This document shows, piece after piece, positions 3,040 through 63,319 of a DNA stretch of 64,000 nt. The stretch is from an uncultured Chthonomonadaceae bacterium. GTDB lineage: Bacteria > Armatimonadota > Chthonomonadetes > Chthonomonadales > Chthonomonadaceae. Numbering within the stretch: position 1 is the stretch's first letter; every line of letters starts with the position of its first letter. A model generated the notes under the pieces. That model ran no database searches. It was not told the origin of the DNA and saw only the letters and a list, made by a program, of their open reading frames with translations. The stretch covers positions 96,001-160,000 of the forward strand of contig CAWIEK010000037.1 in the NCBI GenBank assembly GCA_963835065.1, in the 5' to 3' direction. The position numbers were made by a program, and so were the translations under genes.

Positions 3040-3160
3040 AGGTTTCAGGTTTCAGGGTTCAGGTTTCAGGGAGGAATAACCAGATTATCCTTCCTGCTTA
3101 CCAGACATAGAGAATGAATGAAGGCTTGACCTGAAACCTGAAACCTGAAACCTGAAACCT
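3040..3160. repeat. Inverted heptamer doublet (GGTTTCA)n ... (TGAAACC)n
   Basis: About 4 units at 3040-3070 and 4 complementary units at 3130-3160, between gspG and gspH. Confidence 0.9.
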
Positions 3161-3167
3161 AATCCCT

Positions 3168-3722
3168 ATGAACAAAGGCTTTACCCTAATTGAAATGGTC
3201 GTCGTTATCATCATCGTGGCGGTGATGACGAGCATCGTTGTGCCGGCGTATGCGCGGTTTTATGCGCGGGCGAGCTTCGATGGGCAGGTGCGCCAGGTGC
3301 AGGATGCGTTTGCGTATGCGCGGGAACAGGCACTGGAGCGGGATGCCACCGTGACGCTGGAATTCAGCCCGCAGACGGAAAGTTTCGATATTACGCTGCA
3401 GCCGCCCACGCCGCCCACCGATCAGCCCACGGCGTATGCCAACGCCAACGTGGATACCTCGACGTTTGCTTTGTCGCACACGGTTCAACTGGACAGTTCG
3501 GTTGGCGTTGTTGGATTTACCGCTACCGATACCAGTCAGGGCATCGTACCCGGCGGTTCGACAGGAAATGCAAACAGTAATCGGGGAGCGACAACGGTGT
3601 CTTTCCGCGCGGACGGCACTTCGGATGGCGCGCAATTGACCGTTGTCAGCGCCCAAAATCCCTATTCCGCGCATCTGACGCTGCATCCCGCCAACGCCCG
3701 CCTGACTCTGGACGAAAATTAA
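3168..3722 (+). CDS. gspH: Minor pseudopilin GspH/FimT-like
   Basis: MNKG|FTLIEM N-methylation site, AREQA, FRADGTS; position after gspG. Confidence 0.75.
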   Translation: MNKGFTLIEMVVVIIIVAVMTSIVVPAYARFYARASFDGQVRQVQDAFAYAREQALERDATVTLEFSPQTESFDITLQPPTPPTDQPTAYANANVDTSTFALSHTVQLDSSVGVVGFTATDTSQGIVPGGSTGNANSNRGATTVSFRADGTSDGAQLTVVSAQNPYSAHLTLHPANARLTLDEN

Positions 3723-3742
3723 TCCGCCGGGAAGATAAAACT

Positions 3743-4300
3743 ATGCGCCACATTGTTAGAAAAGGAGAAAAGGAGAAAAGGAGAAAAGGAGAAAATGGCA
3801 AGGATTTTCTTGTCTCCCTGTCTCCTCGTCTCTTCTTTTCCCCCTCTCGTTCCCGGCGTCGGGCGCAAGCCGGGTTTACGCTGGTCGAGATGATTGTGGC
3901 GACGGTTTTGCTGGCGATAGGCGTGGTTGCCACGCTGGGAGCCATTCACGCGGCTGCGACAACCACGCTGGCGGCGGAGGGCGCGCAAACTTCAGCGCTG
4001 CTGGCCCAAAAGCAGATCACGCAACTGCAATTACAGCCCAACCAAATATCGGGCGGCGACCAGTCGGGTGATTTCGGCGAGGAGTATCCCGGCTACAGTT
4101 TTCAGCAGAGCGTAGAAGCGACGGATTACCAGAATTTGTTCAAAGTGACCGTGACCATCAGTTGGGGAGGCAATAATAACCCGCACAAGCGCGAATACGT
4201 CACCTATCTCAGCAACGGCCAACTGGTTACAAACCCCAACGGCGTTACTCCCGGCAGCACAACGACAACCGGAACGCAGGGAGGCGCCAGTGGCAAGTAA
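3743..4300 (+). CDS. gspI: Minor pseudopilin GspI-like with repeat-expanded leader
   Basis: AG|FTLVEM, SGDFGEEYPGY, LFKVTVTISW. The leader contains (AGAAAAGG)n and a CT-rich arm. Confidence 0.7.
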   Translation: MRHIVRKGEKEKRRKGENGKDFLVSLSPRLFFSPSRSRRRAQAGFTLVEMIVATVLLAIGVVATLGAIHAAATTTLAAEGAQTSALLAQKQITQLQLQPNQISGGDQSGDFGEEYPGYSFQQSVEATDYQNLFKVTVTISWGGNNNPHKREYVTYLSNGQLVTNPNGVTPGSTTTTGTQGGASGK

Positions 4301-5297
4301 GAACAGGGAACAGGGAACAGGGAACAGGGAACAGAATGTTTCCTTCATCCTTCATCCTTCATCCTTCATCCTTCGGCGCAGCGCATTTACCCTGCTGGAA
4401 GTGCTGGTGGCGCTGATTATTTTTGGGATCATTACGGTGGCGCTGTCTACCGCACTGTCTGGCGCGCTGCGGGCGCATGTTCTGGCGGAACAGCGGCAGG
4501 AAGACAGCGAAAACGTGCGCGGACTGTTCGCCATTCTTGGGCGGGATTTGCAGAGCGCGTATGGATCGAAGAACGATCCGAATTCCATATTTATCGCGGG
4601 TGGAAGTGGGCAAAGCGGCCAGAACAGCGCGGGCAATGCGCTGCTGACGCTGGCGACACAAACGCATCGGATTACCACGACGGACACGAATGTGGACCCC
4701 ACTGCAAATCAGGCGGGACTAGGTAAAGCGCCGGGATTGGGTTCGATCAATGGGACGCAGGGGAGTAACGACCCGCCGCAGCAGCCGCTGGAATTTGTAC
4801 GCTACGATCTCGATCCGCAGGCAGGCACACTGACGCGGCTGACGCAAACCGTGCCAAATCTGCAAACAATACAATCGGCTGCGCCCGGCCCGGAAAACAT
4901 CATTGCCGGGAATATCGTCAGCCTGACCCTGCAATACTGGGACCCGTATCAGCAAAACTGGCGCGACAGTTGGGATTTCGAGCAGCCGAACTTGCCCGAC
5001 CCCGCCACCGCCGCGCAAACGATGGGCTTTCCGCAATCTACGACGAGTACGTCCGGGCAAAGCAGCGCGACATCGGCGAGTGGAACCACGACGGGAACGG
5101 GAAGCGGAGACATTGGATTGCCGTCCGCCGTGCAGATCATGGTAGTGCTGCGCAGCAGCAACGGCTCCCCGAAAAGTTATTCGATGATTCTGCCCATTGT
5201 GTCGCATGACCTGCAAGATTATCCCTACATGGGCGGACAGCAAATGGACCCGAACGCGCCGCCCGCGACAACTGGAACTACGGGAACAGGCGGTTAG
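4290..5297 (+). CDS. gspJ: Minor pseudopilin GspJ-like with repeat-expanded leader
   Basis: GTG start after GGAGG; SA|FTLLEV, RDLQSA, WRDSWD, LPSAVQI motifs. The leader is encoded by (GGGAACA)n + (CATCCTT)n. Confidence 0.75.
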   Translation: MASKNREQGTGNREQNVSFILHPSSFILRRSAFTLLEVLVALIIFGIITVALSTALSGALRAHVLAEQRQEDSENVRGLFAILGRDLQSAYGSKNDPNSIFIAGGSGQSGQNSAGNALLTLATQTHRITTTDTNVDPTANQAGLGKAPGLGSINGTQGSNDPPQQPLEFVRYDLDPQAGTLTRLTQTVPNLQTIQSAAPGPENIIAGNIVSLTLQYWDPYQQNWRDSWDFEQPNLPDPATAAQTMGFPQSTTSTSGQSSATSASGTTTGTGSGDIGLPSAVQIMVVLRSSNGSPKSYSMILPIVSHDLQDYPYMGGQQMDPNAPPATTGTTGTGG

Positions 5298-5397
5298 CAG
5301 AACAGTTTTCAAGCGGTATATTTTGCCGATAGCCGCAAACATCCTGTCACGGTGTTGGCAGTTCTGAGTTCAGAACTGAAGCAAAGATAAAAATCGC

Positions 5398-7356: not shown

Positions 7357-7363
7357 GAGAATA

Positions 7364-7433
7364 AGTGATGAATGTTGAGTGATGAATGATAAATAGGACG
7401 CTTATTCATCATTCATTATTCATCACTCAGCAT
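7364..7433. repeat. Inverted heptamer doublet (GATGAAT/GTGATGA)n ... (TTCATCA)n
   Basis: Degenerate arms at 7364-7394 and 7403-7433, between gspK and pilM. Confidence 0.75.
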
Positions 7434-7469
7434 TTTTATCCATACCCTTATGTTTTGAAGGAGTTTCGG

Positions 7470-11596: not shown

Positions 11597-11602
11597 CTGA
11601 GA

Positions 11603-11658
11603 AGTTGATAGTTGATAGTTGATAGTCACTGCATCTCTATCACTATCAACTATCAACT
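11603..11658. repeat. Inverted heptamer doublet (GTTGATA)n ... (CTATCAA)n
   Basis: Three units in each arm, short spacer, just downstream of the stop. Confidence 0.85.
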
Positions 11659-11727
11659 GATTGTGACGCCCCTTTTGTGCCTCGTGAGCCTGTTCCCTTC
11701 ATGCAACTGCGGAGGGAACCGCGCTAA

Positions 11728-12087: not shown

Positions 12088-12151
12088 ATTTAGTTGTTCA
12101 TCAAGGGGCCGCGTGGCGGCTCGGATGGACCAGATTGCGGAGGATAATGCC

Positions 12152-17532: not shown

Positions 17533-17610
17533 GATTGCCGATTGCCGATTGTTGATTGTTGATGCGGCTTCTGTCTTCTGTCTTCTCTTCTTCTCTTCTT
17601 CTCTTCTTCC
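17533..17610. repeat. Heterologous repeat doublet (GATTGCC/GATTGTT)n + (TCTTC..)n
   Basis: Fills the gap between the two genes of the module. Confidence 0.7.
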
Positions 17611-19186: not shown

Positions 19187-19412
19187 CACTGCTTCGTAAC
19201 TCTGACAGGCGATGCGGCGGGAAAAGTTGCAGAGGGGAAGAAGACGGGGAGATGGGGAGAAGAGGAGAGGGGCAGATAAGGGATTCCAACCAAAATAAAT
19301 ATTCCGGTCGCAGACCGGTTGGCGGAACGCCCTTTAGACGGGGTGTTCACGACTTCGGCTAAGTGGAGCGTTTGTTTTATTCAGCATCCTGAAGTAGATG
19401 GGTAGAGGGTAG

Positions 19413-22119
19413 ATGGGAGAAGGGCGGCAGCATATGGAAAGCGGCAAAGAAGTTGAGTGGCAGGCAGAGTGGATTTGGGGCGGTCAAGCAGTGGGGGAGG
19501 GGAGTAGTGAGTCGGGTAATCTGGAGAATAGCGGGTTGGCTATGGAAGCAGACGCGCCGCGCTATTACTATTTTCGCAAGACGTTTGCGCTTGCCGGGGA
19601 ACTGGAAAAGGCTGTCCTTCGCGCCTGCGCCGACTCACGGTATCGCCTGTGGCTGAACGGGCGGCTGGTGGGACATGGCCCCGCGCGCAGCGACCCTTCC
19701 TACCAATACTACGATGTGTATGATGTGGAAGCGCATTTGCGACCCGGTGAAAATACGATTGCGGTACTCGCCACGCATTACGGCATTGGGACGTGCTTTT
19801 CACGAGTCGGCAAACCGGGACTGCTGCTGCAACTGGAAGCGACGCAGGCGGATGGCGCGGTTCTGACTGTCGGCACAGGGCAGGATTGGAAATGCGCGCC
19901 CGCTCCCTATCTCAGCGGCTTTCCGCGCATGAGCATACAGCTTGCCTGGCCGGAAGTGTTCGATGCCCGCAACGAACCCGTCAGTTGGAACCTGCCCGGT
20001 TACAACGATTCGGAATGGAGTAATGCCGCATTGATCGGGCCGGTTGGAACGCCCCCCTGGACAACGCTCGTACCCCGCGATATTCCCCTGCCGTTTTATC
20101 GCGCGGTTGCTGACCTGCGCACTGTGCAGGTGAATGTGGTTGAAAAGGGGGAAGAAAAGGAGAACTCAGCAGAAAGCTGAATTGATGATCCGCTGATTGA
20201 TGATTCTCTTACGCCGGTAGACGACTATCAACTATCAACTATCAACTATCAACTCGCCTCTCCTGCCGAAGACATGGAGCGGGCGACGCGATTGCAGCCT
20301 GCGCCGGCGGGCAGTATAACGTATCGGCATCCGGCGCTGTTTACGGTTGCGGCGCAAAGTGGGGGATCGGGGCGTGTCTGTCGTGCTGGATTTTGGGCGG
20401 GAAGTGAGCGGGTTTCCCCTGCTTGTCGTTCGGAAGAGCGGCGGCGGGCGAGTGGACATTGGGTACAGCGAACGGATTGAAACGGACGGCACGGTCAATC
20501 CCAATCGGTGGGGCGGCTGCGACGTGCATTATGCGGATAGACTGCTGTTGCGCAGCGGGCATCAAACGTGGGAGGCGTTGGATCATCGCGCTTTTCGCTA
20601 CATGCGCCTAGACTTTTACGACACGCCGGAACCTGTGGAAATGCTGGTCGAAATGCGCTTGAGCGGCTACCCGGTGGAAACAAGGGGCGATTTTCAGTGT
20701 TCGGACGCCCTGCTTCAAAGAATCTGGGAAGTGGGCCGGTACACAACGGAATTGTGCATGGACGATGGCTTTATGGACTGCCCCTGGCGCGAACGGGGGC
20801 AATGGCTGGGAGATGCGCGAGTGGAAGCGCTTGTCGCCGCGTATGCGTTTGGCGATACAAGGCTGGCGCGAAAAGCCCTCCTGCAATACCCGCAGTCACA
20901 GGAGGAAACGGGCTGGTTTCGGGGCGTGTTTCCGGCTGATCCGCCCTTCGATTCGATTTTGCCGACGTTCTGCATGATCTGGCCCGTCGCGCTGTGGGAC
21001 TATTTTCTCCTTTCGGAAGACCGCAGCCTGCTGGAAACCGTGTGGCCGAATGTGGAGCGGCTTATCGCGGCCATTGAGCGCCATTTGGACGAGGATGGCT
21101 TGATTGCCGATTTGCCGGGTTGGGTGTTTGTGGATTGGGCGAATGTGAACACCAAAGGACAATCCACCGCCGTCAACGCAATGGCTTACGATGCCCTGAA
21201 CCATGCCGCCAAAATTGCCCGCGCGCTCGGCTACCCGGAAAAAGGCAGCCAGTGGCAGATAGCCGCGCATGACCTCCGCGAAGCGGTGAATGATCTAATG
21301 TGGGATCGAAAGCGAAGTCTGTACATTGATGGAATTGTGGAGGGAAAGCCGATAACAGCCGTCAGCGAACAGGCGAATGTTCTGTGCGCGCTGACGGGCA
21401 TGGTTCCCACAGAGGAAACCGCAAACATTCTGCGCTTTCTGGAACGCCTCAATACGGCGGACACAAGTACACCGATTGATGACACGTCGGCAGCGAACAG
21501 CGCTGTTCAGATTGCGACGCCGTACTTTGCGTTTTACCTGCTCAGTCTGCTGTACCGCGAAGGCAAGTCACAGGCGGCCCTCGATTACATGCGGCAGCGT
21601 TGGAGCCGTATGTTGGAGGCGGGCGCGACCACGTTTTGGGAGCAGTGGGAACCGCATTGGAGCCTGTGTCACGCTTGGAGCGCGGCCCCGACCTATTTCC
21701 TCATGGCCTACGTTGCAGGCATAAGTCCCACGCAGCCCGGCTTTGAAGAGTTCAACATCCATTTGGAACCGTTGACACTGACCTGGCTGCGCTGCACCGT
21801 TCCCACGCCACGCGGCGACATCGAACTGTCGTACCACAATCGTCAGCCGCGTCCCATTACCGACCCAATGGGCAATTCCATTCCCACCGTTGCCGCAACT
21901 CCCGCCATAACCGTAAATCTGACGGTTCCCACCGGCACACGCGCTCACGTTCGCCTGCCATTAGGGGCAATTTCAGAGCCGACCATCACGCTCAACGGCA
22001 AAATCATCTGGGAAAATGGAAAAGCGATTGCCCCAAGCGGCGACAAATTCATCCGTGAAGGAGATTACGTTGCGTTTGCGATTATCGGCGGGCGCTACCA
22101 TGTTGAGATAGGGGAGTAG
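19413..22119 (+). CDS. Alpha-L-rhamnosidase (GH78), split by in-frame TGA 20178 and a frameshift at G5 20361-20365
   Basis: AEWIW, FRKTF, ADSRYRLWLNG, LDFGREVSG, DCPWRERGQWLGD, GATTFWE, SLCHAWS. Confidence 0.85.
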
Positions 22120-24372: not shown

Positions 24373-24576
24373 ACCACCCGCTGCGCTAGAGACACAGAGA
24401 CACAGAGGAAAAACCAATACGAGAAAAACAAAAGAGAACAAGGAGAAGAAAAGGAACCGCAAAGAGGCAAAAGAAGCAAAGGGGCTTGTTCTCTTCTTTT
24501 CTCCTTTTCTTCTTTTCTTCTTTTCTTCCTCTGTGTTCCCTCTCTGTGTCTCTGTGTCTCTAGCGAAGCGGGTGGT
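24373..24576. repeat. MITE-like element with 35-bp inverted ends (GACACAGA octamers) around purine then pyrimidine tracts
   Basis: 24373-24407 versus 24542-24576 are reverse complements with 1 mismatch. Confidence 0.85.
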
Positions 24577-24648: not shown

Positions 24649-26685
24649 ATGAGCGAGATTTACGATGTATTGGTGATTGGGGCAGGACATGCGGGGTGCG
24701 AGGCGGCTTTGGCGGCAGCGCGTATGGGCTGCCGCACGGCAATTGCCACCCTGAACTTTGAGCGGATCGGGCATTTGCCGTGCAACTGTTCCATTGGCGG
24801 GCCGGCGAAGGGGCATCTGGCGCGCGAAGTGGACGCCCTGGGCGGCGAAATGGGTATAAACACCGACAAGACGCTGACGCACATTCGCTACGTCGGCACG
24901 GGCAAAGGTCCTGCCGTGCAAACGCTCCGCGCCCACGCCGACAAAGAGTTGTACCCGCAAGCCATGCGAGCCGTGCTGGAAACCACGCTCAACCTGACGA
25001 TGCTGCAAGTGGGCGTGGAAGACCTTGTTACAGAGGGTGTCGGGTGTCGGGTGTCGGGTGTTGGGAGTACCACTGCTAATCTGATTGAGGCAGCGAATTC
25101 GAGTTTGGAAAGTAACGCTCATCTATTGCCCGACACCCGACACCCAACACCCGACACCCGCATCACCGGTGTTCGTCTCGCCGATGGAACCGAGATTGCG
25201 GCGAAAACGGTGGTGGTGACGACGGGCACGTTTTTGAACGGGCTGATGCACTGTGGGGAAACGCAGACGGCGGGCGGGCGCGTGGGGGAAGCGCATAGCG
25301 TAGGGCTGTCGGGCGCGTTGCGGCGGCTGGGGTTCCGGTTGGGACGGTTCAAGACGGGCACGACGCCGCGCATCAGTCGGCGCTCGGTGGATTTCGCGCA
25401 GACGATGGCACAGGAGTCGGAGGATTGCGCGCCGTTTTCATTTGTGAACGCAACGCTGAATGTGGGGCGTCCGCTGCTGCCAAGCTGGCAAACGCAGACC
25501 AACACCTAGACGCACGACATTATACGCGCCAATCTGGAGCGGTCCGCGATGTACGGCGGCAGGATTCAGGGGATTGGGCCGCGCTATTGTCCAAGTATTG
25601 AGGATAAGGTTGTACGCTTTGCCGACAAGGACTCGCATCCCGTGTTTTTGGAGCAGGAAACATGGGACGGCGACTCGCTGTACGTGCAGGGTACGAGTAC
25701 AAGTTTGCCTGCTGAGGTTCAGATCGCGTTTTTGCGGACATTGCCCGGTTTGGAGCAGGTGGAAATGCTGCGTCCCGGCTACGCGGTTGAGTACGACATG
25801 GTGTTTCCTGACCAACTGCATCCGACGCTGGAAACCAAAACGGTGCGCGGGCTGTTTCTCGCCGGGCAGATAAACGGCACGAGCGGGTATGAGGAAGCCG
25901 CTGCGCAGGGCATCGTGGCGGGTATCAACGCGGGCTTGCAGGCGCAAAATCGCCCGCCCCTCGTTTTGGAGCGGCAGGGCAGTTACATCGGCGTCCTGAT
26001 AGACGATCTGGTGACGAAGGGTGTTTCGGACCCCTACCGGATGCTCACGTCGCGGGCGGAATACCGGCTGATATTGCGCCATGACAACGCCGACCTGCGC
26101 CTGACGCCGATTGGACGAGAAGCGGGCGTGGTGTCGGAGGAGCGTTGGGCGAAGTTTACGGCGAAGCGGGAAGCGATAGAAGGGGAGCGGAAGCGGTTCG
26201 CGTCTACGTTCGTGTGGCCCCGGGATAGCGCGCGGCTGGAAGCGCTTGGCACAACCGGGCTGGGCGAAAACAAAATCGCCCTCCTGACCTTGCTGAAGCG
26301 GCCTGAACTGGCGTATGCGCAGTTGGCGCAGTTGGCGCGGGAACTCGACTCGGCCAATGTTCCCGGCGCGGACGTAACCCGCGCGGTTGGCGAACAGGTG
26401 GAGCTGCAGGTCAAATACGAGGGCTACATTCAGCGGCAGGAGATACAGGTGGAGCAGGCGTCGAAAATGGAGGCGGTAGAAATCCCCGACGATATGGATT
26501 ATGCCGTTCTGCGTTCGCTGTCACACGAGGGGCGGGAGAAATTGGGCCGCATCCGTCCGCGCTCACTGGGGCAGGCAGGGCGTATTCCCGGCCTGCGTCC
26601 CGGCGATATTCAGGTGTTGTCCATCCATCTGGAGCAGCGGCGGAGAGCAGGCAACAAGGAGAGTCTCCATCCGTTCGCCTCTTGA
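24649..26685 (+). CDS. mnmG: tRNA uridine 5-carboxymethylaminomethyl modification enzyme MnmG/GidA, with in-frame TAG at 25507 and a repeat-derived insertion
   Basis: [66 protein letters not shown]; both halves are in the same frame. Confidence 0.95.
25035..25160. repeat. In-frame inverted heptamer doublet (GGGTGTC)n ... (CCGACAC)n inside mnmG
   Basis: Encodes [10 protein letters not shown]...[10 protein letters not shown] between VEDLVTE and RITGVRL. Confidence 0.9.
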
Positions 26686-27418: not shown

Positions 27419-29249
27419 ATGGAACGCAGTTTGTATTTGAGCGCGTTGGCGATGGGCCTGGTGGCGTGGGTATGCAGCCTGCTGCTGGCTCCACGTCGGA
27501 AAGCAAAACTGGCGGACGTACTTGGAGGATGGACGCCGGCAACGTATCGTTTTGCGGCAGGTTGGATTCCTCTGCTTGCGCTCTTGGCTTCGATTCCAAT
27601 GAAAACACCATTTGCCGGAGGGCATGGGTTGGGACTTGGTTTGCTGCTGGGGGCTGTTGGCGCTTGCCTGACAATGTTGACGCTCGCGCACGGATGGAGC
27701 GATGCACAGGACGCAGAAGGCGGAGACGCGCCTAACATGGTGGCTTGCGTGGCTCCGTTTGCGCTGGCAGTGGTGACAGTAGCGATACCCCTGCTGTGGA
27801 TGCGGAATGTCGTTGTGGATGCGCTGCTCGGCGTAGCCCTGGGCTGGCTGACGTCCACGCTCCTGCTGTTGGCGGGACTTAATGCCGCGCGAAGCGCAGG
27901 CCGTCTGCTCGGACTGACGCTGACGGCGGGAACCGGGTTTACAGCAACCCTATGCGCGCTTGGCGCAATCGGGGAGTTGGGCGGCAACGTGCGCGTCGGA
28001 AGCGGCTTTATCGGCGTCCCGTGGAGCGCGCCCCTGTTGCTGCTGGCGGCCTTCATGGTTTTTGTACTGCTGTTGTGCGCCCTTCCCCCTTCGCTGCTGC
28101 GCCAACTGCCCGGCGCAAATCTGCTGCTGCGGGCTTCCTCTTCTCTAAAGAGTGAATCGGCGCGACAGATAGCGCCTAATATAGCGCGCTGGCTTGTCGG
28201 CGGACTGCTGTTCGTGGGGTTGGGAACGCAATTCGGGCATCGCCTCTGGGGGCAGCCCAACATATTTCGACTGATCGGAATGGGCGTCCTTGCAAGCGGG
28301 CTGGCGTGGTGGATGCTTGCCGGACAATTGCGAACGGCGTCAAATGGATATGGGAACGGCAACGGAAATTGGCCGCGCATGGCCTTGCCCGTGCTGGTGA
28401 TGATGGCGGCGGGCATGGTGGCATTTCAAATGCTGTCCGGCGTCGGGTTCGCCATCATGCTGCTCGGCGCGTGGCTGACAATGGGGATCGCGCTCACAGG
28501 CGCGCAGCAAAGCGAACCACAATTGGATATGGACGGTAACGCTCGCGTATCCGCCCTCTCGATCTCTTCCGAACTCCTGCGCGTCCTGCTGTTCGGAACC
28601 GTGTTGCTGCTGTACCGCCTCTATCAAGTCCGTTACCATAACGACCTGCAAAACGTCCTGCTTCCCGACCATTACGCCCTGCTCGGCTTCATCGTCGGCG
28701 CGGCAGTCCCGGCGGCGCTGGCGCAAGTACCAGGGGTCAGGGAGAGAGAAGAGAGAGGGAGAAAAGGAGAGGGGGAGACAAGGAAAAGAGAAGACAGAAG
28801 ACGAGCATCCATCCATCGAAAATCCTTCATCCTTCATCAAATTGCCCAACACCCTCCTGCCTATGCTCATCGCGGGCGTCCTGCTGCTGTTCGTGCCCGC
28901 TGTGCTGCTGATGCTGTTTGGAACCAAGTGTTTGCTGTGCCTGTTCTTCGGGCTTGCGTTGGCTGCGGTCATTGGCGAGGGTTCGCATAATAACCGGCTG
29001 GACGCAGACTTGGACGGAGCGCGGCCTGTGCCGGGGGAATGGCTGACGGGCTTGTTCGCGCTTGGTATCGGGCTTGCGGTAGCGCAATGGACAGCGCACA
29101 TACTGCCCGTCACCCTGATGGCGCGAACCGACAAGACACGCCTGCTCACCTACCTGACCGGAACCGTCGCCGTCCTGCTGTTCGTCACCGCCCTAATTGG
29201 ACGCCTGCGCTCCTCGACTGCGCCCGTACAGAAGGGAGGCGCGCGATGA
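27419..29249 (+). CDS. Large multi-pass membrane protein, frameshifted within a purine-rich insert (about 28740-28840)
   Basis: GAAGGAGG RBS; many TM helices; hydrophobic sequence resumes in the 28842-29249 frame, whose stop overlaps the next ATG. Confidence 0.7.
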
Positions 29250-35544: not shown

Positions 35545-35662
35545 AGGGAACAGGGAACAGGGAACAGGGAACAGACGATACTACTACCTAAACTATCTGA
35601 ATAACCTCGAAAGGTTATAGAGCGGGTATTTTCTGTTCCCTGTTCCCTGTTCCCTGTTCCCT
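35545..35662. repeat. Inverted heptamer doublet (GGGAACA)n ... (TGTTCCC)n
   Basis: Four units per arm, about 58-bp spacer. Confidence 0.9.
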
Positions 35663-36766: not shown

Positions 36767-36856
36767 AGGCATTAGGCATTAGGCATTAGATATTAGGAAA
36801 GTACCTGTTTAGCGGGTGCATTGTCCTAATGCCTAGTGCCTAATGCCTAATGCCTA
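36767..36856. repeat. Inverted heptamer doublet (GGCATTA)n ... (TAATGCC)n
   Basis: Arms at 36767-36797 and 36825-36856. Confidence 0.9.
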
Positions 36857-38934: not shown

Positions 38935-39013
38935 AGTGATGAGTGATGAATGATGAGTGATGAATGAAGACGCCGCGCTTTACTCATCACTCATCACTCA
39001 TCATTCATCATTC
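38935..39013. repeat. Inverted heptamer doublet (GATGAGT/GATGAAT)n ... (CTCATCA)n
   Basis: Arms at 38935-38968 and 38982-39013. Confidence 0.88.
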
Positions 39014-41154: not shown

Positions 41155-41664
41155 CCGTTTTCGATAGGCAGCAGCGCCCCTGTTATAATTGGTACACGCC
41201 CACAAAAAAGCAACAGAAAAAGAGCAAAATAATTCGAAAAAAAGCGAACCCTTTGCCCCACGCAACCGTCTAAACAGTAGAATAGTGTCTATTATACAGA
41301 GACGAAGGCTGAAAGTTCGAGTTCCTCTCAACTCTCAACCCTCAACTCTCAACCAAGACAAAAGGGAGGTGCAAAGCCTATGTTTCACCCCTCCCGCTCG
41401 CCCTGATGCTTTCGAGGTCACGACGCCTCTCTCCTACAATCTGACACAACGAGACATCGGGCTGGAAGCGCTGCATTGCCAAGATTTCGACGATGCCTCT
41501 ACATACTCTTTTTTCTACCTGCCGCTTGCCAACGCTTTCAAGACTTCCGCTTGGTAAATGACGGACTTACCGCAGGTTCAGGAAGGGATATGTCTACGGA
41601 TCCTTAGAGCCACTCCCAATAGGCGCGGCATTTGCGCCCGAAGGACAGTTGCCGGGTACTTTCA

Positions 41665-42857: not shown

Positions 42858-43060
42858 TGGTTTGCTGCTTTCTGTTTCTGTTCTCGTCGTTGAAAATAAG
42901 TTCAGGTATTCAGGTGTTCGGTGTTCAGGTCTTCGGTATTGGTTTGTATTGTGACCGAAATTGCCCGTTCTGCGCAAGAGACAATTTGAACGGATGCTTA
43001 ATTTGCGCGTAGTTGCTGATGTGGCGGCAGTAATAAACAAACCAACATGAAGGACACGAT

Positions 43061-47717: not shown

Positions 47718-47857
47718 GGGTGTTCAGGTATTCGGGTGTTCAGGTGTTCGGGTACTCAGGTATTGGCGCTCTCTTTAGTCTTAGCTGTCAAGACGTACAA
47801 ACTCGGATTCTCAATACCTGAACACCTGAACACCAAACACCTGAACACCTGAACACC
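47718..47857. repeat. Inverted octamer doublet (GGTGTTCA)n ... (GAACACCT)n
   Basis: Arms at 47718-47764 and 47812-47857; a lone arm of the same family lies at 42901-42940. Confidence 0.85.
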
Positions 47858-47871: not shown

Positions 47872-49875
47872 ATGCCTCAATCCGAACCGGATGGCTGTCC
47901 GCGCGACGCGCTTGCCCAATTGCGCCAACGATACCCCGACGCTCCTTTTCTGGCGTTGGGGCAAACCGTCTTTTGGGACGAACCCGTGAAGGCCGCGCTG
48001 CGCAAACTGCTGGATGACAACCATCTCGGCGGGCATATCATACTGGGCGTTCACGACACGGACTATTTCGCCAAAGCGCAATTGCCGTACTCCAAGCAGA
48101 AACGGTTCGCGCTGATGCCGCACAACGACGGCAGCACCAAATCTCTGTGGTCGGCGGCGGGCGAAATCTCTACCCTGTTCGGCAGCGAAACCTTTCCCAC
48201 GCGGCACGATTACGCGCGCTGCGGCGTGGCGTTTCGTAAATTGGCCCGCGCCCATCCCGGCGGGGCGCAGGCGTTTTTGGATGACCTGACCGAAGCGTGG
48301 GGCTGGCGCGGGCTGGTGTATACGGGTTCGCGTGACCTGATCGTACATTACCTGCCGCTCAAGGAAGTCGGCGACGGCATTATGGAAATGCTGCGGTGGG
48401 GCTTCGACAACGCCCTGTCGCAAATCGTGCCCGGCTGCTGTCAGGACGAGGCGAAGCGCGTTACCGATACCATCATGGGCTGGTGCGCCGACTTTCGGCA
48501 GGCCAACCCCGACAAAAACCTCACCCATCTATTTCAGCACTTATTGCCCCTGTTTTATGAATTGCTGCTTGGTTCGCCACTCCAAAACATCAGCGTAGAC
48601 TGCACCACGAACCTGCTCCGCCTGACCCCGGCAACAGCGCATCGGCCCCGCTTCCGCTTTGTAGATTTGTTTCTCAATCCCGATACGCGCGAACACGCCC
48701 TCCATGCCTACAATACCGCGCTTGCCGGTTCGGAAATGTACACGCTGGATCGTTTTGGCGCGGGCGCATTGCCATTTGACATTATCCTGCCGGAACGGGG
48801 CCGGGGAACCCTGCGCGTGACGCCCCGCGTCCTCTTCGTGGAAACCCGGCAGCCCGTCGCCATCGGCCTGAAGAAACCTGTCGAATCCATACAGGAATTG
48901 GCGGAAATTTTGAACCGCAAATTAGGCGATGAGATTACACTCGTCGGTAAAGCGGTATCCCTTGTTTCCATGCTGGCGCAGGAGTTTATCTTTGTTTTCA
49001 ATGAGGAAGGCTCGCTGTATGTGCGCCGAACCCGGCAAATGAACGACATGCTGGCGGAAAAAGGGATTGCCTTAGATATGCGCCCCATTCTGCGCATGCG
49101 CTATCATACTTGGGACGCGCTGTGTGTGGGCAAATCCACCCTGCGCCCCACCGAGCATCTTGCCGCTGCTTTCGGACAGAAAACCATTACCACGCCCGAA
49201 TTCGCCGCGCACTGGAAGCAGGTGATTCAGGAACAGCGCCAGTTGTGCAAGGACATTGCGCAGGTACACAAGCCCTTGCAGTTGCTCCAATTCTTACAAA
49301 AACGCAGCAGCACAGAGGATTGGGAGGAGCAAACGCGCGCCCACCAAAAGGCCAAACAACTCCTCTATGAGAATTGGGAAGAAGCGGCAGTCCTTCAGAA
49401 GCAGATTGACGCGCTTTACGCCACCCGGCGTCAACTGAAACAGCGCAGTCTGGAAACCCAAACGGCGCAGGGAGCGCATTTTCGCAGCGTAAGCGAATGG
49501 ACACCTGAAGCCCATGCAACCCGCGCCGCTTATAAGGAAGCAGCGCGCGCTCTGTGCCTGCAAAAGCGAAGTGTGTGCGGCGAAATTCGAGAGTTAAAAG
49601 TGCGCCGCCTTGCCCTGGAGCGCAGCGCGGATGCTGTTAATGCCCGCGAAACCCTTGCCCAAATCGAAGCCCGCGCCGAACTGGCGCGTATGCAGCTTGT
49701 GCGTAACGCCCTGCTGACCATTGAAGGCTTGACTCACACCAACCATCGCCCATCCGTCTGGTGGCTGCCCGTACTCGATCCCGCCGGCGACTGGTTCCGC
49801 CGCCTTGCGGACACGGCGGAAGTGTATATGGAACCTTTATTAAGGGGTCAGGAGTCAGGGGTCAGGGGCCAGTAA
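47872..49875 (+). CDS. Conserved hypothetical protein with C-terminal coiled coil
   Basis: 667-aa ORF with conserved-looking motifs (LGQTVFWDEP, HDTDYF, HND, RPSVWW); function not recognised. Confidence 0.75.
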   Translation: MPQSEPDGCPRDALAQLRQRYPDAPFLALGQTVFWDEPVKAALRKLLDDNHLGGHIILGVHDTDYFAKAQLPYSKQKRFALMPHNDGSTKSLWSAAGEISTLFGSETFPTRHDYARCGVAFRKLARAHPGGAQAFLDDLTEAWGWRGLVYTGSRDLIVHYLPLKEVGDGIMEMLRWGFDNALSQIVPGCCQDEAKRVTDTIMGWCADFRQANPDKNLTHLFQHLLPLFYELLLGSPLQNISVDCTTNLLRLTPATAHRPRFRFVDLFLNPDTREHALHAYNTALAGSEMYTLDRFGAGALPFDIILPERGRGTLRVTPRVLFVETRQPVAIGLKKPVESIQELAEILNRKLGDEITLVGKAVSLVSMLAQEFIFVFNEEGSLYVRRTRQMNDMLAEKGIALDMRPILRMRYHTWDALCVGKSTLRPTEHLAAAFGQKTITTPEFAAHWKQVIQEQRQLCKDIAQVHKPLQLLQFLQKRSSTEDWEEQTRAHQKAKQLLYENWEEAAVLQKQIDALYATRRQLKQRSLETQTAQGAHFRSVSEWTPEAHATRAAYKEAARALCLQKRSVCGEIRELKVRRLALERSADAVNARETLAQIEARAELARMQLVRNALLTIEGLTHTNHRPSVWWLPVLDPAGDWFRRLADTAEVYMEPLLRGQESGVRGQ

Positions 49876-49962
49876 CTACAATCTACATCCTCTGCCTGCT
49901 TGTAAGCAGAGGTGTTTGTGTAGTTCTCACCCCTGACCCCTTACTCCTGACCCCTGACCCCT
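49843..49962. repeat. Inverted heptamer doublet (GGGGTCA)n ... (CTGACCC)n
   Basis: The left arm encodes the last residues (RGQESGVRGQ) of the upstream ORF. Confidence 0.85.
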
Positions 49963-51838: not shown

Positions 51839-51908
51839 CAAAAGGGGTGTTGGGTGTTGGGTATCGGGTGTCGCAACGCTCAAACGAAAATTCCTAAAAG
51901 GAAAATTT

Positions 51909-53129
51909 ATGCCTGAAGAAGCGGAACAACAATCTCAGCCTTTAACGCGCCGGGGCTTTGTCTCCCGCGCCGCGTCCGCCTCGCTGCTGCCTGCGCTGAC
52001 CGCAACGGAAGCCGCCGCGCAAACTCCCGCATTGCAGCCGGATCGAAGCCTGCGGCTCACTCCCGCGCAATCCGCCGCCCACTTGATTACCCGGCAGCGC
52101 GAACCGGAAAATTTGGAATTCAACTTCGGCACATTGGACAACTTTCTCACGCCCAATGACCGCTTTTACGTGCGTACCCACTTTGCCACGCCTAATCTGG
52201 ATGCCGCGCAGTGGCAGTTGCGCGTAGAGGGAGCGGTTGAGCGTCCGTTTACGCTTTCCTATGCCGAATTGCAGCAGATGCCGTCGCGCAAATTGCAAAC
52301 CACGCTGGAATGTGCCGGCAATGGGCGTGTCGCGCTGACCCCGCCTGCCAATGGCGTACAGTGGGATTTGGGCGCGGTCAGCACGGCGGAATGGACGGGG
52401 GTATCCCTGTCGAATTTGCTGGCGCGGGCGGGTATCCGTCCTGAAGCCGTAGACGTGGTTTTGGAAGGCGCGGACAGCGGGGAAATCAAGACCACGCCGC
52501 GCCCTGCCGGAGCCATTCACTTTGCCCGCAGCCTGCCCCTCGAACGCGCGCGGCAGCAGGATGTAATCCTCGCCTACCGCATGAACGGCAGCGATTTGCC
52601 CGTTTCGCATGGTTTTCCGGTTCGAGCCGTTGTGCCCGGCTGGTACGGCATGGCGTCCGTAAAATGGCTGACGCGCATCCTTGTATTACCGCAAGCGTTT
52701 CAGGGCTATTTTCAGACCATTGATTACGCGATATGGGAGCGGCAGGGGGGCGAAGCAAGGCGCGTTCCCATTACCACCATGCAGGTCAAGGCCAGCATTG
52801 CGCGTCCCACATTCCGGGAATTGATTCGCGCCGGGAGTGCGTATCGTATCTATGGAGCGGCCTGGGCCGGGGAAGCCGCTGTTACCAAAGTGGAAGTCAG
52901 CGCCAATGGCGGCCAATCCTGGCAGCCCGCCCGCTTGAACAATCTGCCGGTTCCGTATACCTGGCGCTTCTGGGAGTACGAGTGGCGCGCGCCCCAGCAG
53001 CCGGGACGCTACGGCATCCTGGCGCGGGCAACCGACGCAAAAGGCAACACACAGCCCCTGCAGCGCGACGCTGACCGCGAAAATTACATGATTAACCACG
53101 TTGTGCCGGTGGAAGTGGAAGTGGGATAG
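51909..53129 (+). CDS. Sulfite oxidase-family molybdoenzyme with Tat-like signal
   Basis: TRRGF; FYVRTH, ECAGNGR, HGFPVR..PGWYG..SVKWL; Mo-co dimerisation domain. Confidence 0.9.
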   Translation: MPEEAEQQSQPLTRRGFVSRAASASLLPALTATEAAAQTPALQPDRSLRLTPAQSAAHLITRQREPENLEFNFGTLDNFLTPNDRFYVRTHFATPNLDAAQWQLRVEGAVERPFTLSYAELQQMPSRKLQTTLECAGNGRVALTPPANGVQWDLGAVSTAEWTGVSLSNLLARAGIRPEAVDVVLEGADSGEIKTTPRPAGAIHFARSLPLERARQQDVILAYRMNGSDLPVSHGFPVRAVVPGWYGMASVKWLTRILVLPQAFQGYFQTIDYAIWERQGGEARRVPITTMQVKASIARPTFRELIRAGSAYRIYGAAWAGEAAVTKVEVSANGGQSWQPARLNNLPVPYTWRFWEYEWRAPQQPGRYGILARATDAKGNTQPLQRDADRENYMINHVVPVEVEVG

Positions 53130-53250
53130 GCATTAGGCATTAGATATTAGGCATTAGGCTGCTCATTATCGGCTTGAATGGGATGTGCCTTTAGACAACA
53201 CTATCCTGCTTGTACAGGTACTAATGCCTAATGCCTAATGCCTAATGCCT
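53128..53250. repeat. Inverted heptamer doublet (GGCATTA)n ... (TAATGCC)n
   Basis: Same family and same AGATATT variant unit as at 36767. Confidence 0.9.
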
Positions 53251-57348: not shown

Positions 57349-57420
57349 CCGCAGTTTGATAAGTTGAGGCATGAAACCCAATCCCGTTCAAGTAACGCCT
57401 GCACCGGGAATAAATTCCTC

Positions 57421-57515: not shown

Positions 57516-57540
57516 GCGCATTTAATGCACGGACTTTTCA

Positions 57541-57825: not shown

Positions 57826-58697
57826 GTAACGAGACGCTGAACAGCAACGCGCCAGAGGAGGCGATGTCTGCCGAACCGGTGTATGCGCCTGTTCCTGCGC
57901 CGATTACGCTGGATGTGACGCCAATGCTGGAACGCTGGAAAGGGGCAGGGTGGCAATTGCTGCCGGAAGTTCCGCTTAGTCCCGCCATGAATGTCGCGCT
58001 GGATGAAGTTTTGTTGGGACAGGTGCAGCGTAGCGAACGTCCGCCGACCTTGCGGTTTTGGGGATGGGGCGGGCAGGCGGTGATTTTGGGTTCGTTTCAA
58101 TCCGTACGCAATGAAGTGGACGAGCAGGCCGCGCAGGAAATGGGAATCGCCATTGTCCGGCGCATGAGCGGCGGCGGAGCCATGCTGGTGCAGCCCGGAT
58201 TAACGATTACGTACTCGCTGTATATTCCCGACGGATTGCTGCAAGGCGTTTCCATTGCCAACTCGTATGCGGTTTGCGATCAATGGGCGGTGGCGGCGTT
58301 TCGGGAGGCGGGGATCAATGCGTGGTACGCGCCCCTCAACGACATTACGAGTGCGGAAGGCAAAATCGGCGGCGCGGCGCAGGCGCGGCGTCCCGGCGCA
58401 ATCCTGCACCACACGACCATTGCCTACGAAATGAACCCCGACGAGATGCTGCGCGTTCTCCGCATCGGACGCGCCAAACTCAGCGACAAAGGCATTGCCA
58501 GCGCCGCCAAGCGCGTCAGCCCCCTGCGCCGTCAAACCGACCTGCCCCGCGAACAACTGGTAGCGCGTCTCACAGAGGGTTTTCGCAACGATTTCGGCCT
58601 GACCGACTCCGCGCTGTCTGCCGAAGACATTCTCGCCGCCGAACAGCTTGTACAGACAAAATACGGCACAGACGCCTGGACGCATAGCCTGCCCTGA
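57822..58697 (+). CDS. lplA: Lipoate-protein ligase A catalytic domain
   Basis: NVALDE, PTLRFW, RRMSGGGA, NDI..KIGGAAQ, HHTT. Confidence 0.88.
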   Translation: MSNETLNSNAPEEAMSAEPVYAPVPAPITLDVTPMLERWKGAGWQLLPEVPLSPAMNVALDEVLLGQVQRSERPPTLRFWGWGGQAVILGSFQSVRNEVDEQAAQEMGIAIVRRMSGGGAMLVQPGLTITYSLYIPDGLLQGVSIANSYAVCDQWAVAAFREAGINAWYAPLNDITSAEGKIGGAAQARRPGAILHHTTIAYEMNPDEMLRVLRIGRAKLSDKGIASAAKRVSPLRRQTDLPREQLVARLTEGFRNDFGLTDSALSAEDILAAEQLVQTKYGTDAWTHSLP

Positions 58698-60173: not shown

Positions 60174-60196
60174 TGCCACGATGATGCCTCCCCAAA

Positions 60197-60334
60197 AAGG
60201 ATGAAGGATGAAGGATGAAGGATGAAGAATGAAGACAATGCCTGTCTCTGTCTTAATCAATAAACATGGTTATGACAGAAGAAGCCATTGTCCTGAGTGC
60301 AATTCTTCATCCTTCATCCTTCATCCTTCATCCT
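60197..60334. repeat. Inverted heptamer doublet (GGATGAA)n ... (TTCATCC)n, duplicated at 63027-63164
   Basis: Arms at 60197-60234 and 60305-60334. Confidence 0.9.
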
Positions 60335-60489
60335 TTTCGGGGCGGGAAAATCCTGCTTGTTTCTTATCGTGCAATTTTACGCCGATGAGGGCTGTCAACA
60401 GGAATGGGCACCTTGCCGCTAGTACGCGGCAGAGCCAATAATAAATCATCCGAGAGGATGAATGGGAAGAAGCAGGAGAAAGAGGCAAC

Positions 60490-61680
60490 ATGACAGCGCA
60501 ACCTTTGAACATACAAATCTACTTACGCGGCGGCGGCACATTGGAAGCATTGGCGCGCGATCTGGCAATCCGCCATGCCCGGCATCCGGCTTACGCCAAT
60601 CTGGTACTGCTGAAATACGATCAGATTAACAGCCCGATGGACAACCCTGTTGTGCGGGAGTGCCGGGGGCTGATTCTGGATGAAGCGGACGATTGGCGCA
60701 TTGTTGCCCGCGCTTACGAGAAATTCTTCAACTACGGCGAACCGAACGCGCCCGTTATAGATTGGACAACCGCCCGCATACAGGAGAAAGTAGACGGAAC
60801 CCTGTGCATTTTCTACCATTACGACAGCAAGTGGCATGTTGCGACAACGGGAACGCCGGACGCCGGGGGCAGGGTGCATAACGGCGAGCGCATATTCCGT
60901 GACCTGATCTGGGAAACGGCAAGGCAGTACGAAATGCAGTTGCTTTCGCCCCAACATTGCTATCTGTTTGAACTCACAAGCCCCTACAATCGCGTGGTCG
61001 TGCCGCATGAGCAGCCGGGCTTGACCCTGCTGGGCATACGGCAAACGGATAATGGCGCATGGGTCCCGCTGAAGCAGGCCCATTCGTATATCAGCGGTTC
61101 CGTGCCTGTCGTGCAGGAGTTCGCGTTCAACTCGCTTGCCGCCGTGCTGTCTTCGTTGGAAAACATCAACCCTCTGGAGCAGGAGGGGTACGTGGTTGTG
61201 GATGGCGCGGGCAATCGCGTCAAGGTGAAGCATCCGCGTTATGTCGCGCTGCATCTGCTCAAGGAATCGTTCAATTTGCGGGCGTATGTGGAGGTATTGC
61301 GGGCAGGCGAAACTCCCGAACTGCTCACGTACTTTCCCGAAATCGGGGCAGAGTACGCGCCGGTTCGCGCTGCTTACGAAACCCTCGCGATGGAAATTGA
61401 CGCCGATTACAGCCGTCTGCGTTCGCTTGACACGCAGAAAGAGTTTGCACAGGCCGCGCTCAAAACACGCTGCTCCGCCGCGCTGTTCGCAATCCGGGCC
61501 GGCGATTGCCGCGATGCCCGCGATGGATTATTTAAGCATGTGGAGCAGCCGTTGGTAAGCCTCTTCCCAGCGTTCGGCGTTTGCGGCAGGCGTGTAGGTT
61601 TCCAGCGTGAAAGAATTGCGCACGATTTGCCGCGCCTGCTCCAGCCCATTCAGCAGGCCGACGCCGATGGCCTGCATTAG
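60490..61680 (+). CDS. T4 Rnl1-like RNA ligase, copy 1; C-terminus chimeric past the junction at 61526
   Basis: ECRGLI, KFFN, EKVDG (motif I Lys), FEL, EGYVV, VKVKHP.Y. Confidence 0.85.
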   Translation: MTAQPLNIQIYLRGGGTLEALARDLAIRHARHPAYANLVLLKYDQINSPMDNPVVRECRGLILDEADDWRIVARAYEKFFNYGEPNAPVIDWTTARIQEKVDGTLCIFYHYDSKWHVATTGTPDAGGRVHNGERIFRDLIWETARQYEMQLLSPQHCYLFELTSPYNRVVVPHEQPGLTLLGIRQTDNGAWVPLKQAHSYISGSVPVVQEFAFNSLAAVLSSLENINPLEQEGYVVVDGAGNRVKVKHPRYVALHLLKESFNLRAYVEVLRAGETPELLTYFPEIGAEYAPVRAAYETLAMEIDADYSRLRSLDTQKEFAQAALKTRCSAALFAIRAGDCRDARDGLFKHVEQPLVSLFPAFGVCGRRVGFQRERIAHDLPRLLQPIQQADADGLH

Positions 61681-63003
61681 TATATTGCCGATAGCGGTTG
61701 CTTCCACCGGGCCGGCAATTACGGTTCGGCGCGTGGCATCGGCGGTGAGTTGGCACAGCAGTTTGTTTTGGGTTCCGCCGCCCACGACGTGAATGGTGTC
61801 AATGCCGCGCCCGCGTACCTGCTCCAATCCCTCCACTACAAACCGGTATTTCAGCGCGAGGCTTTCCAGGCAGCAGCGGATGATTGCGCCCTCGTCCTGT
61901 GGAACCGCCTGCCCCGCGCGTTGGCAGAAGGCGCGGATTTCCGCCGCCATGTCGTCGGGCGCGAGGAACGCGGGATCGTCCGGGTCAATCAATGGCCCGA
62001 ATGGAGGAGCCTGTTCCGCCAGTGTGGTCAAGGTAGCATAGCTGTGATCGTGTCCGTATCGGGCAAACGAGCGGCGGCACTCCTGCACGAGCCACAATCC
62101 CATCACGTTTTTCAGGACGCGAACCGTGTTACGCGCGCCGCCTTCATTGGTAAAGTTGAATTTCGCGGTTTGTTCGGAGATAAGCGGGACAGGCGCTTCG
62201 ATGCCGACAAGCGACCATGTGCCGCTGCTGATGTAAGCGTAATCGGGAGTGGACGCGGGCACGGCGACAACCGCGCTGCCCGTATCGTGGGTGGCGGGCG
62301 CGATCACTTGCAGGTTGGTGGCTCCTGTTTCTGCCGCAATATCCCGGCGAAGTGTGCCAAGCCGCGTTCCCGCGGGTACGATGTCGGTGAAAATAGCGCG
62401 GGGCAGTTGAAACGCTCCAATCAAATCCTCCGCCCATGCGTGGTTATGCGGGTCGGCGAGTTGCGTCGAGGTGGCGTTGCTCCATTCCGTCACTTTTACG
62501 CCCGTCAGCCAGAAGTTGAGCAGGTCGGGCATGAGCAGCAAGGTGCGGGCGTTTGCCAGCAGGGGCGAACCCGCTTTTTGCAGCGACAGCAGTTGATATA
62601 GCGTATTGAACTGCAAAAACTGTATTCCCGTGCGCTTGTAAATCGCTTCACGCGGCACGGTTTGAAACGCGGCTTCCATCATGCCGTCATTGGCGTGGTC
62701 GCGGTAATGGCGTGGGTTCCCCAACAGCACATCGTCTTTGCCGAGCAGTCCGAAATCCACTGCCCACGTATCAATGCCCATCCCCCTAAAATCGGTTCCA
62801 CAGGACTGCGCGGCCAATCGTAATCCTGTCTTGATTTCCGTAAACAGCCGCAGCGCGTCCCAATACAGCGTATCGAGTACGCGCGTCCCGCCCGTCGCAA
62901 AACGGTGCGCGTCCTGCAAGCGCAGTTTGTCGTCCTCAAAAAAGCCCGTTACCGCCCGCCCGCTTTCCGCGCCCAGATCAAACGCCAGAAACTTGGCTTC
63001 CAT
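61528..63003 (-). CDS. rhaB: Rhamnulokinase, copy 2
   Basis: Near-identical to copy 1. Confidence 0.9.
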   Translation of the reverse strand: MEAKFLAFDLGAESGRAVTGFFEDDKLRLQDAHRFATGGTRVLDTLYWDALRLFTEIKTGLRLAAQSCGTDFRGMGIDTWAVDFGLLGKDDVLLGNPRHYRDHANDGMMEAAFQTVPREAIYKRTGIQFLQFNTLYQLLSLQKAGSPLLANARTLLLMPDLLNFWLTGVKVTEWSNATSTQLADPHNHAWAEDLIGAFQLPRAIFTDIVPAGTRLGTLRRDIAAETGATNLQVIAPATHDTGSAVVAVPASTPDYAYISSGTWSLVGIEAPVPLISEQTAKFNFTNEGGARNTVRVLKNVMGLWLVQECRRSFARYGHDHSYATLTTLAEQAPPFGPLIDPDDPAFLAPDDMAAEIRAFCQRAGQAVPQDEGAIIRCCLESLALKYRFVVEGLEQVRGRGIDTIHVVGGGTQNKLLCQLTADATRRTVIAGPVEATAIGNILMQAIGVGLLNGLEQARQIVRNSFTLETYTPAANAERWEEAYQRLLHMLK

Positions 63004-63319
63004 TGCCACGATGATGCCTCCCCAAAAAGGATGAAGGATGAAGGATGAAGGATGAAGAATGAAGACAATGCCTGTCTCTGTCTTAATCAATAAACATGGT
63101 TATGACAGAAGAAGCCATTGTCCTGAGTGCAATTCTTCATCCTTCATCCTTCATCCTTCATCCTTTTCGGGGCGGGAAAATCCTGCTTGTTTCTTATCGT
63201 GCAATTTTACGCCGATGAGGGCTGTCAACAGGAATGGACACCTTGCCGCTAGTACGCGGCAGAGCCAATAATAAATCATCCGAGAGGATGAATGGGAAGA
63301 AGCAGGAGAAAGAGGCAAC

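Follow-up and report, generated by a model that had tools for sequence, protein, structure and literature searches.

What generates the paired heptamer repeats that recur along this stretch of DNA? The window analysed here, 64,000 nucleotides from an uncultured Chthonomonadaceae bacterium (contig CAWIEK010000037.1), contains loci at which a G- or purine-rich tandem array of 7- or 8-base units (the G arm) is followed by a spacer and then by a C/T-rich array (the C arm); we call such a pair a doublet. Heptamer repeats have long been noted as over-abundant in many bacteria, with no cause to account for them. We consider it reasonably likely that the doublets are gene-less copied derivatives of cassettes that encode a four-helix-bundle protein, because the same arms enclose four-helix-bundle genes and fill an insertion site in 23S rRNA; the cassette protein, a predicted pentamer, is expected to bind the G-rich arm and to aid the cassette's spread.

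A strict search of the window for a G arm followed by a C arm returned 14 doublets, and reading of the sequence added six with one degenerate arm, giving 20, as well as four solo arms (Table 1). An earlier note on the window had counted about 20 loci built from at least nine units; the number agrees, with the doublets at 60197 and 63027 being one duplicated locus, and all nine units named there were present. Its spacers, described as unique and 5-70 nt long, in fact range from 4 to 82 nt and often form families. None of the 20 doublets has the C-rich arm first, and the uniform polarity that the note had reported extends to the window's own genome (G000; 8.0 Mb in 71 contigs, a 92%-complete assembly). 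There, 2795 period-7/8 arrays were found; contig C49 alone has 250 period-7 and 40 period-8 arrays, and an order-5 Markov simulation yields none of either. Polarity was tested on adjoining arrays less than 150 nt apart with opposite G/C skew and a 7/8-base period: among 707 such pairs, 700 were G-first and 7 C-first. A larger set of 815 doublets was built after arm merging. Since its units were oriented from the data, its own count (815 G-first versus 9 C-first) is partly circular, and the skew-only figure is the test. Both arms are inverted copies of one unit in 394 of the 815; of 958 unpaired arms, a weak partner lies on the expected side for 233 and on the opposite side for 17.

The arms are diverse in unit and uniform in length. 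The largest unit families of G000 are AGTTGAT (268), AACAGGG (248), AGGCATT (226), AGTAGTC (148) and AAAAGGAG (60), and the 37 commoner heptamer units are more related to one another than shuffled units are (29 single-change links versus 14.8). Nearly half of the period-7 arms (1144 of 2329) span 30-33 bases, and for four top units the ratios of four to five perfect units are 54:2, 54:0, 88:2 and 63:0. Arms mostly end after four units and a part, at fixed phases, which gives five cores. The top units AGTTGAT, AGTAGTC, AGTGATG and AATGATG contain no GG, and hence not the G-tract in every unit that marks a G-quadruplex array. Because AGTAGTC and AGTTGAT nevertheless show the same four-unit cap, a G-quadruplex role (PMC4692102) is not general.

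Genes that recur between the arms were looked for, as the earlier note had proposed, and two kinds were found. Three genes of G000, none within the window, match the four-helix-bundle family TIGR02436 / PF05635 at 105-129 bits (cut-off 24). All three, and one pseudogene, have a G arm on one side and a C arm on the other, so that the full form of the element reads G arm, TIGR02436 gene, C arm. The cassette arms use three of the four commonest unit families (AACAGGG, AGGCATT and AGTAGTC) plus AAAAGGAG. We then drew on relatives, on viral contigs and on GTDB genomes spread over many phyla, which gave 148 loci homologous to the four-helix-bundle genes (9 of 157 fell below the profile threshold). 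An upstream arm is present at 92, a downstream arm at 88 and both at 68 (53 G-first, 3 C-first); any arm was seen at 7 of 126 controls. Nineteen viral contigs encode a four-helix-bundle protein, six of them with arms on both sides, which may mark a route between hosts or host contamination. The solved homologues 2GSC and 2RLD, which match the cassette protein with E values of 1e-33 and 2e-29, have five chains each, and the cassette protein is predicted to be pentameric.

The second connection is with ribosomal RNA. Each 23S gene of G000 exceeds the Rfam model in length by about 300 bases. Both copies carry, at about position 1218 of the Rfam LSU model, a gene-less AGTAGTC doublet that is 72-77% like the intergenic copies and whose two arms are predicted to form a long stem; by E. 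coli numbering we take this position to be helix 45, which, like helices 9 and 25, is a known site of intervening sequences (IVSs). The same-genus relatives G001 (97% complete) and G002 have other heptamer arms at this site, and the helix is short and empty in 5 of 5 other usable, more distant relatives (G005, with its 23S mis-oriented, is omitted). A GGGAACA doublet further 3' stands in place of a four-base loop of G002, with no duplication. A third expansion, towards the 5' end of the C49 copy at about base 320-480 of the gene, has a GGGCACA arm; the expansions of G001, G002 and G023 differ there. By position and structure, only the rRNA copies would rank as IVSs. These are confined to rRNA, from which RNase III removes them with no re-ligation, and nearly all 815 doublets, like all cassette genes of G000, lie outside it.

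Units are also specific to genomes in a way that follows the cassettes. Arrays of AGAAAAC occur in 1 of 41 genomes, G023 (201 matches), whose cassette bears AGAAAAC arms; AGTAGTC arrays gave 142 matches in G000, 2 in G001 and 0 in the others. Spacers in the gene-less families of these two units are about 57-60 bases long, and the two consensus sequences align with each other; the two cassettes encode one protein clade, in a quick-method tree that is poorly resolved. Among 76 proteins less than 80% identical pairwise (72 of the 148 had no clear period-7 arm or were more than 80% identical), unit similarity, scored out of 7, increases with protein identity, from 3.05 up to 5.17 (rho 0.45; 0 of 2000 permutations). 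This covariation supports recognition of the unit by the protein, short of proof, as joint inheritance would predict the same; the genome specificity of the units is more telling.

Could the arms simply have formed where they stand? Polymerase slippage in place, with hairpin-templated repair copying arm to arm, would require no movement; Mrazek et al. 2007 put forward heptamer slippage, according to PMC4679880. Such copying would suit the 136 variant positions mirrored in both arms of 377 doublets, and some arms, as at C3:154699 and C16:121598, do extend from the final codons of the gene upstream of them. The same doublets, however, hold 522 one-sided variant positions, and local origin leaves unexplained both the single polarity and the agreement with cassette units; the sharp arm-length cap and the composite peptide modules that coding copies share at many loci also speak against it. 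It had already been weakened by homologous spacers at unrelated loci. Gene-less doublets form families of fixed length, of which the AGTAGTC family comprises 67 spacers with a median identity of 51% (score 38.8 versus 15.4 shuffled), and a G023 family stands at 67% identity. We judge a purely local origin improbable.

Two other routes to such arms were rejected. Telomere-like arm synthesis at DNA breaks with end joining would give polarity, but the homologous spacer families argue for copying of whole elements. Mutagenic retrotranscription like that of diversity-generating retroelements (DGRs) does not fit spacers in which A is the best-kept base in both families, with no adenine bias. The reverse transcriptases of G000 are CRISPR-linked (C49:681429-683452, beside cas1, cas6 and csx15) and retron-like (C50:52482-55980, beside a BRCT-domain protein); doublets lie near both.

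We compared orthologous junctions to follow turnover, over 778 kb of G002, whose DNA is about 79% identical to that of G000, and 220 kb of G001. Arms were present in 73 and 43 of 340 G000-G002 junctions, and in both at 34, against 9.2 expected (p 2e-18). Of these 34, a common unit family is seen in only 2, where shuffling gives 0.66; with G001, 6 of 66 junctions were co-occupied and 0 of 6 shared a unit. Flanks are conserved at orthologous sites, and arms and spacer are both different. Orthologous sites stay filled while the unit changes, in the MnmG loop as well. Empty orthologous sites, which the earlier note had wanted sought, exist in 23S rRNA, in the MnmG loop and at intergenic junctions, although of the G002 sites that look empty, many contain short arms and only some lack arms altogether. 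Contigs of related strains end at the repeats and gave no usable filled or empty allele. We rejected a rewriting of arms in place round a conserved spacer, as orthologous spacers were no more alike than random ones (11 pairs, p 0.14, a small test in which one pair seemed homologous). Multi-arm clusters show how replacement may proceed. G forms precede C forms in them; nested orders predominate (ABa/Aba 26, ABba 2), with no crossing ABab and no tandem LRLR among these clusters. New arms lie inside old ones, and at 24373..24576 in the window the outer arms are common to G002 and the interior is different.

Copying of whole elements could also be the work of classical MITEs (non-autonomous miniature transposons with inverted repeats), which a nuclease or transposase would move in trans, with the four-helix-bundle genes as passengers. 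Like MITEs, the doublets have terminal inverted repeats and form dispersed families of fixed length with related spacers, and their orientation relative to transcription is unbiased (22 against 24). A candidate mover is at hand in the GxxExxY protein, presumably PD-(D/E)xK-like: recurring cargo between the matched arms that we examined was either TIGR02436 or GxxExxY, no genome-wide transposase search having been made. Inverted flanks, of either polarity, surround 19 of 24 GxxExxY loci and 0 of 21 controls, and G001 has five GxxExxY genes but no TIGR02436 match. Target-site duplication is lacking: direct repeats of at least 4 bases flank 5.4% of the 815 doublets and 5.3% of shuffled partners, with a slight excess in the AGGCATT family only (27% versus 19% for repeats of at least 3 bases). 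At the rRNA site that is cleanly empty in a relative, a four-base loop has likewise been replaced, not duplicated. Moreover, GxxExxY arms have 8/9-base units and both polarities, whereas heptamer units track the four-helix-bundle clade. Of the three GxxExxY genes in G000, one has clearly inverted arms, one partial arms, and one a direct copy plus an inverted arm; modules of the 24373..24576 element resemble these arms. Movement as classical MITEs appears unlikely.

The placement of the doublets raised the question of whether the host maintains them. By our own gene calls, with approximate starts, the 815 comprise 494 in co-directional gaps, 64 convergent, 61 divergent, 190 inside open reading frames (ORFs) and 6 at contig edges. 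In most co-directional cases the G arm begins at the upstream stop or no more than about 6 bases from it. The end of the C arm usually lies 9-20 bases before an ATG, and of the 184 cases with the ATG 7-20 bases away, 128 have a Shine-Dalgarno (SD) sequence in between. Hairpins retained for processing or stability of polycistronic RNA, or for tuning translation, would explain this placement and the persistence of sites across species, with turnover secondary; translational control was proposed for TAACTGA repeats (MacGregor 2015, PMC4679880). Such a network would not be expected to have its units wholly replaced between congeners, with many sites empty in one, nor to place about 190 copies in coding loops. 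Sense and antisense folds of intergenic copies are equal, and the G-quadruplex role that might have served regulation fails for the units without GG. We regard host regulation as the primary cause as rather improbable. Two structural ideas were also rejected: a hairpin bridging a split ribosome-binding site fits 11 of 42 cases with an ATG directly after the C arm, most genes having their own SD past the arm; and conserved spacer structure was not supported, spacer-only folding giving z of about -0.3 to -1.3 in most families and no consensus fold. A cluster of apparent tRNA genes, candidates by appearance, has doublets of differing units between its members (C49:430300-431760).

Copies within genes are in frame. 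Their 5' arms consist of stop-free purine units, AACAGGG in 96 of 190. At least two doublets of the window are of this kind (in mnmG at 25035 and in the ORF 29246-32758 at 31892). We parsed the MnmG loop in 27 relatives (3 of 30 loci were unparsed): it has minimal length in 6, and recognisable arms, mostly of other units, in 5. An in-frame TAG splits mnmG at 25507-25509, where relatives are open; as TAG is an ordinary stop in G000 (721 of 2679 long genes), this is likely a point change or an assembly error. Avoidance of sense pairing by coding copies was considered and rejected, since the weaker sense folds in 154 of 174 mixed doublets are mostly explained by the need for stop-free units; a modest residual effect remains, with 30% of the strongest and 56-60% of the weak ORF-compatible hairpins lying in genes. 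Gene-less forms, in sum, occupy gaps between stop and ribosome-binding site, protein loops and small loops of 23S rRNA.

We return to the proposal that doublets are gene-less cassette copies. One polarity across about 37 units would reflect descent from one cassette end, and could be kept by protein recognition of five cores, at 7-base spacing, on single-stranded RNA or DNA. A ring that reads five cores is predicted from the five-core arms, the five-chain homologues and the five-protomer RNA contact of Avd, a DGR protein. New copies would enter hairpin loops, including those of resident doublets, through host recombination and with no target duplication, and older arms may be lost after such insertion into a resident hairpin. 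RNase III, which G000 encodes, may cut well-paired stems from transcripts, harmlessly between genes and at helix 45. More tentatively, and without quite expecting it to hold in full, we suggest an as yet undescribed, transposase-free class of selfish element. In it, an RNA-binding ring of five protein subunits and heptamer arms of five sites would co-evolve as a code, with each protein subfamily reading a unit of its own, and the protein would drive hairpins without a gene into rRNA loops, mRNA gaps and proteins, overwriting residents.

Several observations count against these ideas. At the threshold used, 80 of 148 four-helix-bundle homologues do not have arms on both sides. G001 has doublets despite having no TIGR02436 match, and the commonest family, AGTTGAT (268), like most other units, is without a cassette in the 92%-complete assembly of G000. 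GCTGAGG arrays occur in two genomes with the cognate cassette and also in two relatives in which none was seen. A strict five-site ruler is at odds with the 35 of 169 cassette-flanking arms of at least 6 units, and with the long arms of the f3 genomes. The protein-unit correlation may stem from the joint inheritance of gene and arms and not from recognition, and a clade motif (27 of 43 versus 1 of 33) was picked after the data were seen, from kin that were not thinned to independent pairs. The co-occupancy figures, which cover only 778 kb for G002 and 220 kb for G001, are without correction for the permissiveness of junctions. Finally, we know of no catalytic activity for the cassette protein, which leaves the mobilising step missing. 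Nonetheless, polarity, empty sites, recurrent genes, capped arms and spacer families together support the dedicated mechanism, rather than slippage, for which the earlier note had argued.

The features of the window are collected in Table 1. A type II secretion-like operon (1142-15571; gspF, G, H, I, J, K, pilM-like, gspC, gspD) has doublets at five gene junctions. A direct duplication of at least 2475 nt, 99.8% identical (58696-61170 and 61526-64000), holds rhamnulokinase together with one doublet and a portion of an RNA ligase gene of T4 RnlA-like type, and is either real or an assembly artefact. Both recN (55222-56921) and a cysteine-desulfurase-like gene (43061-44366) resume in another frame, which suggests single-base assembly errors. 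Other repeats include a 131-nt sequence in two inverted copies, 92% identical (41667-41796 and 46495-46625) and unrelated to the heptamer arms, and an 18-base tandem repeat of 3.7 copies (35144-35209) that differs in contigs of a related strain.

Table 1. Doublets and solo arms in the window, by position.
Position	Strand	Feature	Context and relatives
3040..3160		doublet GGTTTCA / TGAAACC	58-nt spacer; between gspG-like and gspH-like genes; GTGGTTG doublet here in G002
3758..3848		AAAAGGAG arm and degenerate pyrimidine arm	leader of, or upstream of, gspI-like pseudopilin; CACAGAGG-type element in G002
4301..4374		mixed doublet GGGAACA / TTCATCC	6-nt spacer, gspI-gspJ junction; other units in G002
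7365..7434		doublet GATGAAT / ATTCATC	gspK-like stop to pilM-like SD; one arm degenerate; same flanks with GGGAGTA-type arms in G002
11603..11658		doublet GTTGATA / TATCAAC	3' of gspC-like stop; one arm degenerate
17533..17609		composite doublet	a pair of G-form units followed by a pair of C-form units
19242..19277		solo G-form arm, degenerate	
20181..20254		degenerate G arm and CTATCAA arm	between two rhamnosidase-like ORFs; units differ in G002 and G001
24373..24576		nested element	outer CACAGAG-type arms (also G002; left arm also G001), inner purine/pyrimidine arms; one arm degenerate
25035..25160	+	doublet GGGTGTC / GACACCC	in frame in mnmG loop; relatives with other units or no insert
28739..28838		composite purine arm and TTCATCC arm	one degenerate arm
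29257..29341	+	mixed doublet GGGAACA / CTATCAA	5' end of 1170-aa ORF 29246-32758
31892..31964	+	mixed doublet GGGAACA / CCCGACA	in frame in 1170-aa ORF 29246-32758, near residue 885
35545..35662		doublet GGGAACA / TGTTCCC	58-nt spacer
36767..36856		doublet GGCATTA / TAATGCC	ABC-transporter operon gap
38935..39013		doublet GTGATGA / TCATCAC	strict scan
41325..41353		solo C-form arm	
42900..42940		solo G-form octamer arm	
47718..47857		octamer doublet GGTGTTCA / TGAACACC	strict scan
49843..49962		doublet GGGGTCA / TGACCCC	upstream of penicillin-binding protein 2 gene
51845..51873		solo G-form arm	
53127..53250		doublet GGCATTA / TAATGCC	spacer in five-member family
60197..60335		doublet GGATGAA / TTCATCC	upstream of rhamnulokinase
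63027..63165		second copy of 60197 doublet	inside 2475-nt duplication; not independent

One genome here joins the heptamer excess to the four-helix-bundle family, through a gene-bearing cassette, an rRNA IVS, intergenic hairpins and in-frame peptide inserts. To our knowledge the four-helix-bundle "IVS protein", solved as a pentamer, has no assigned function. If our reading is true, the orphan S23p/TIGR02436 family would gain one, the bacterial heptamer excess would be explained, and 23S IVSs would be one landing site of a genome-wide system that adds peptides at about 190 sites of the proteome. Annotators should be aware that peptides such as SSFILHPSS and GTGNREQ within conserved proteins are element DNA. 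No published link between dispersed heptamer hairpins and the four-helix-bundle family was found in the literature searched, which was mostly open-access.

How, then, does the element compare with known systems? The earlier note had pointed to the short tandemly repeated repetitive sequences (STRRs) of cyanobacteria, which are dispersed heptamer runs. That likeness stood, but the Xanthomonas GGGAATC pairs and the 23S rRNA IVSs are nearer parallels. Like STRRs and the TAACTGA repeats of Beggiatoaceae (PMC4679880), the arms of G000 are dispersed heptamer runs, mostly intergenic and near start codons; those repeats, however, are described as single runs with no partner arm or cargo gene, and no mechanism is offered for them. 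Xanthomonas GGGAATC repeats (Rehm et al. 2015, PMC4692102) prefer four units and form 70-75 convergent inverted pairs per genome, and they share with G000 the polarity, a G-rich strand that is sense near stops and antisense before ORFs, and a location mostly in co-directional gaps. They constitute one unit family, read as G-quadruplexes, whereas G000 has about 37 heptamer units, many without GG; unit swapping and the cassette link set G000 apart from that account, which does not contain the term "four helix".

In Coxiella burnetii, the helix-45 IVS contains an S23p ORF after tandem heptamers (GACAGAT) and is cut by RNase III (PMC4990558). G000 resembles this ORF-bearing IVS in the helix-45 position, the conversion of a small loop into a long stem and the availability of RNase III; full cassettes have the same protein family in the loop and tandem heptamers at the 5' arm. 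In contrast to Coxiella, the rRNA copies of G000 are gene-less and the gene-bearing copies lie outside rRNA, and about 800 doublets, of dozens of units, occupy intergenic gaps and protein loops. Short dispersed hairpin families with in-frame gene insertion are shared with MITEs and Rickettsia palindromic elements, and RNase III cleavage is reported for Correia elements (PMC10969869). Unlike MITEs as described there, G000 has arms of tandem heptamers, no target-site duplication and no cognate transposase among the armed stretches examined, without a genome-wide search. Avd of DGRs is a related pentameric four-helix barrel whose five protomers all bind an RNA element (bioRxiv 10.1101/2023.10.23.563531; PMC10053308), which supports RNA binding by fold; unlike Avd systems, G000 has CRISPR-linked and retron-like, not DGR, reverse transcriptases, and spacers without adenine-biased change. 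The convergent pairs of four-unit arrays in Xanthomonas and the heptamers of the Coxiella IVS were already published; no paper that joins the two was found in the literature searched. By analogy, the element appears to work like an ORF-bearing IVS spread genome-wide, and like a MITE minus the target duplication.

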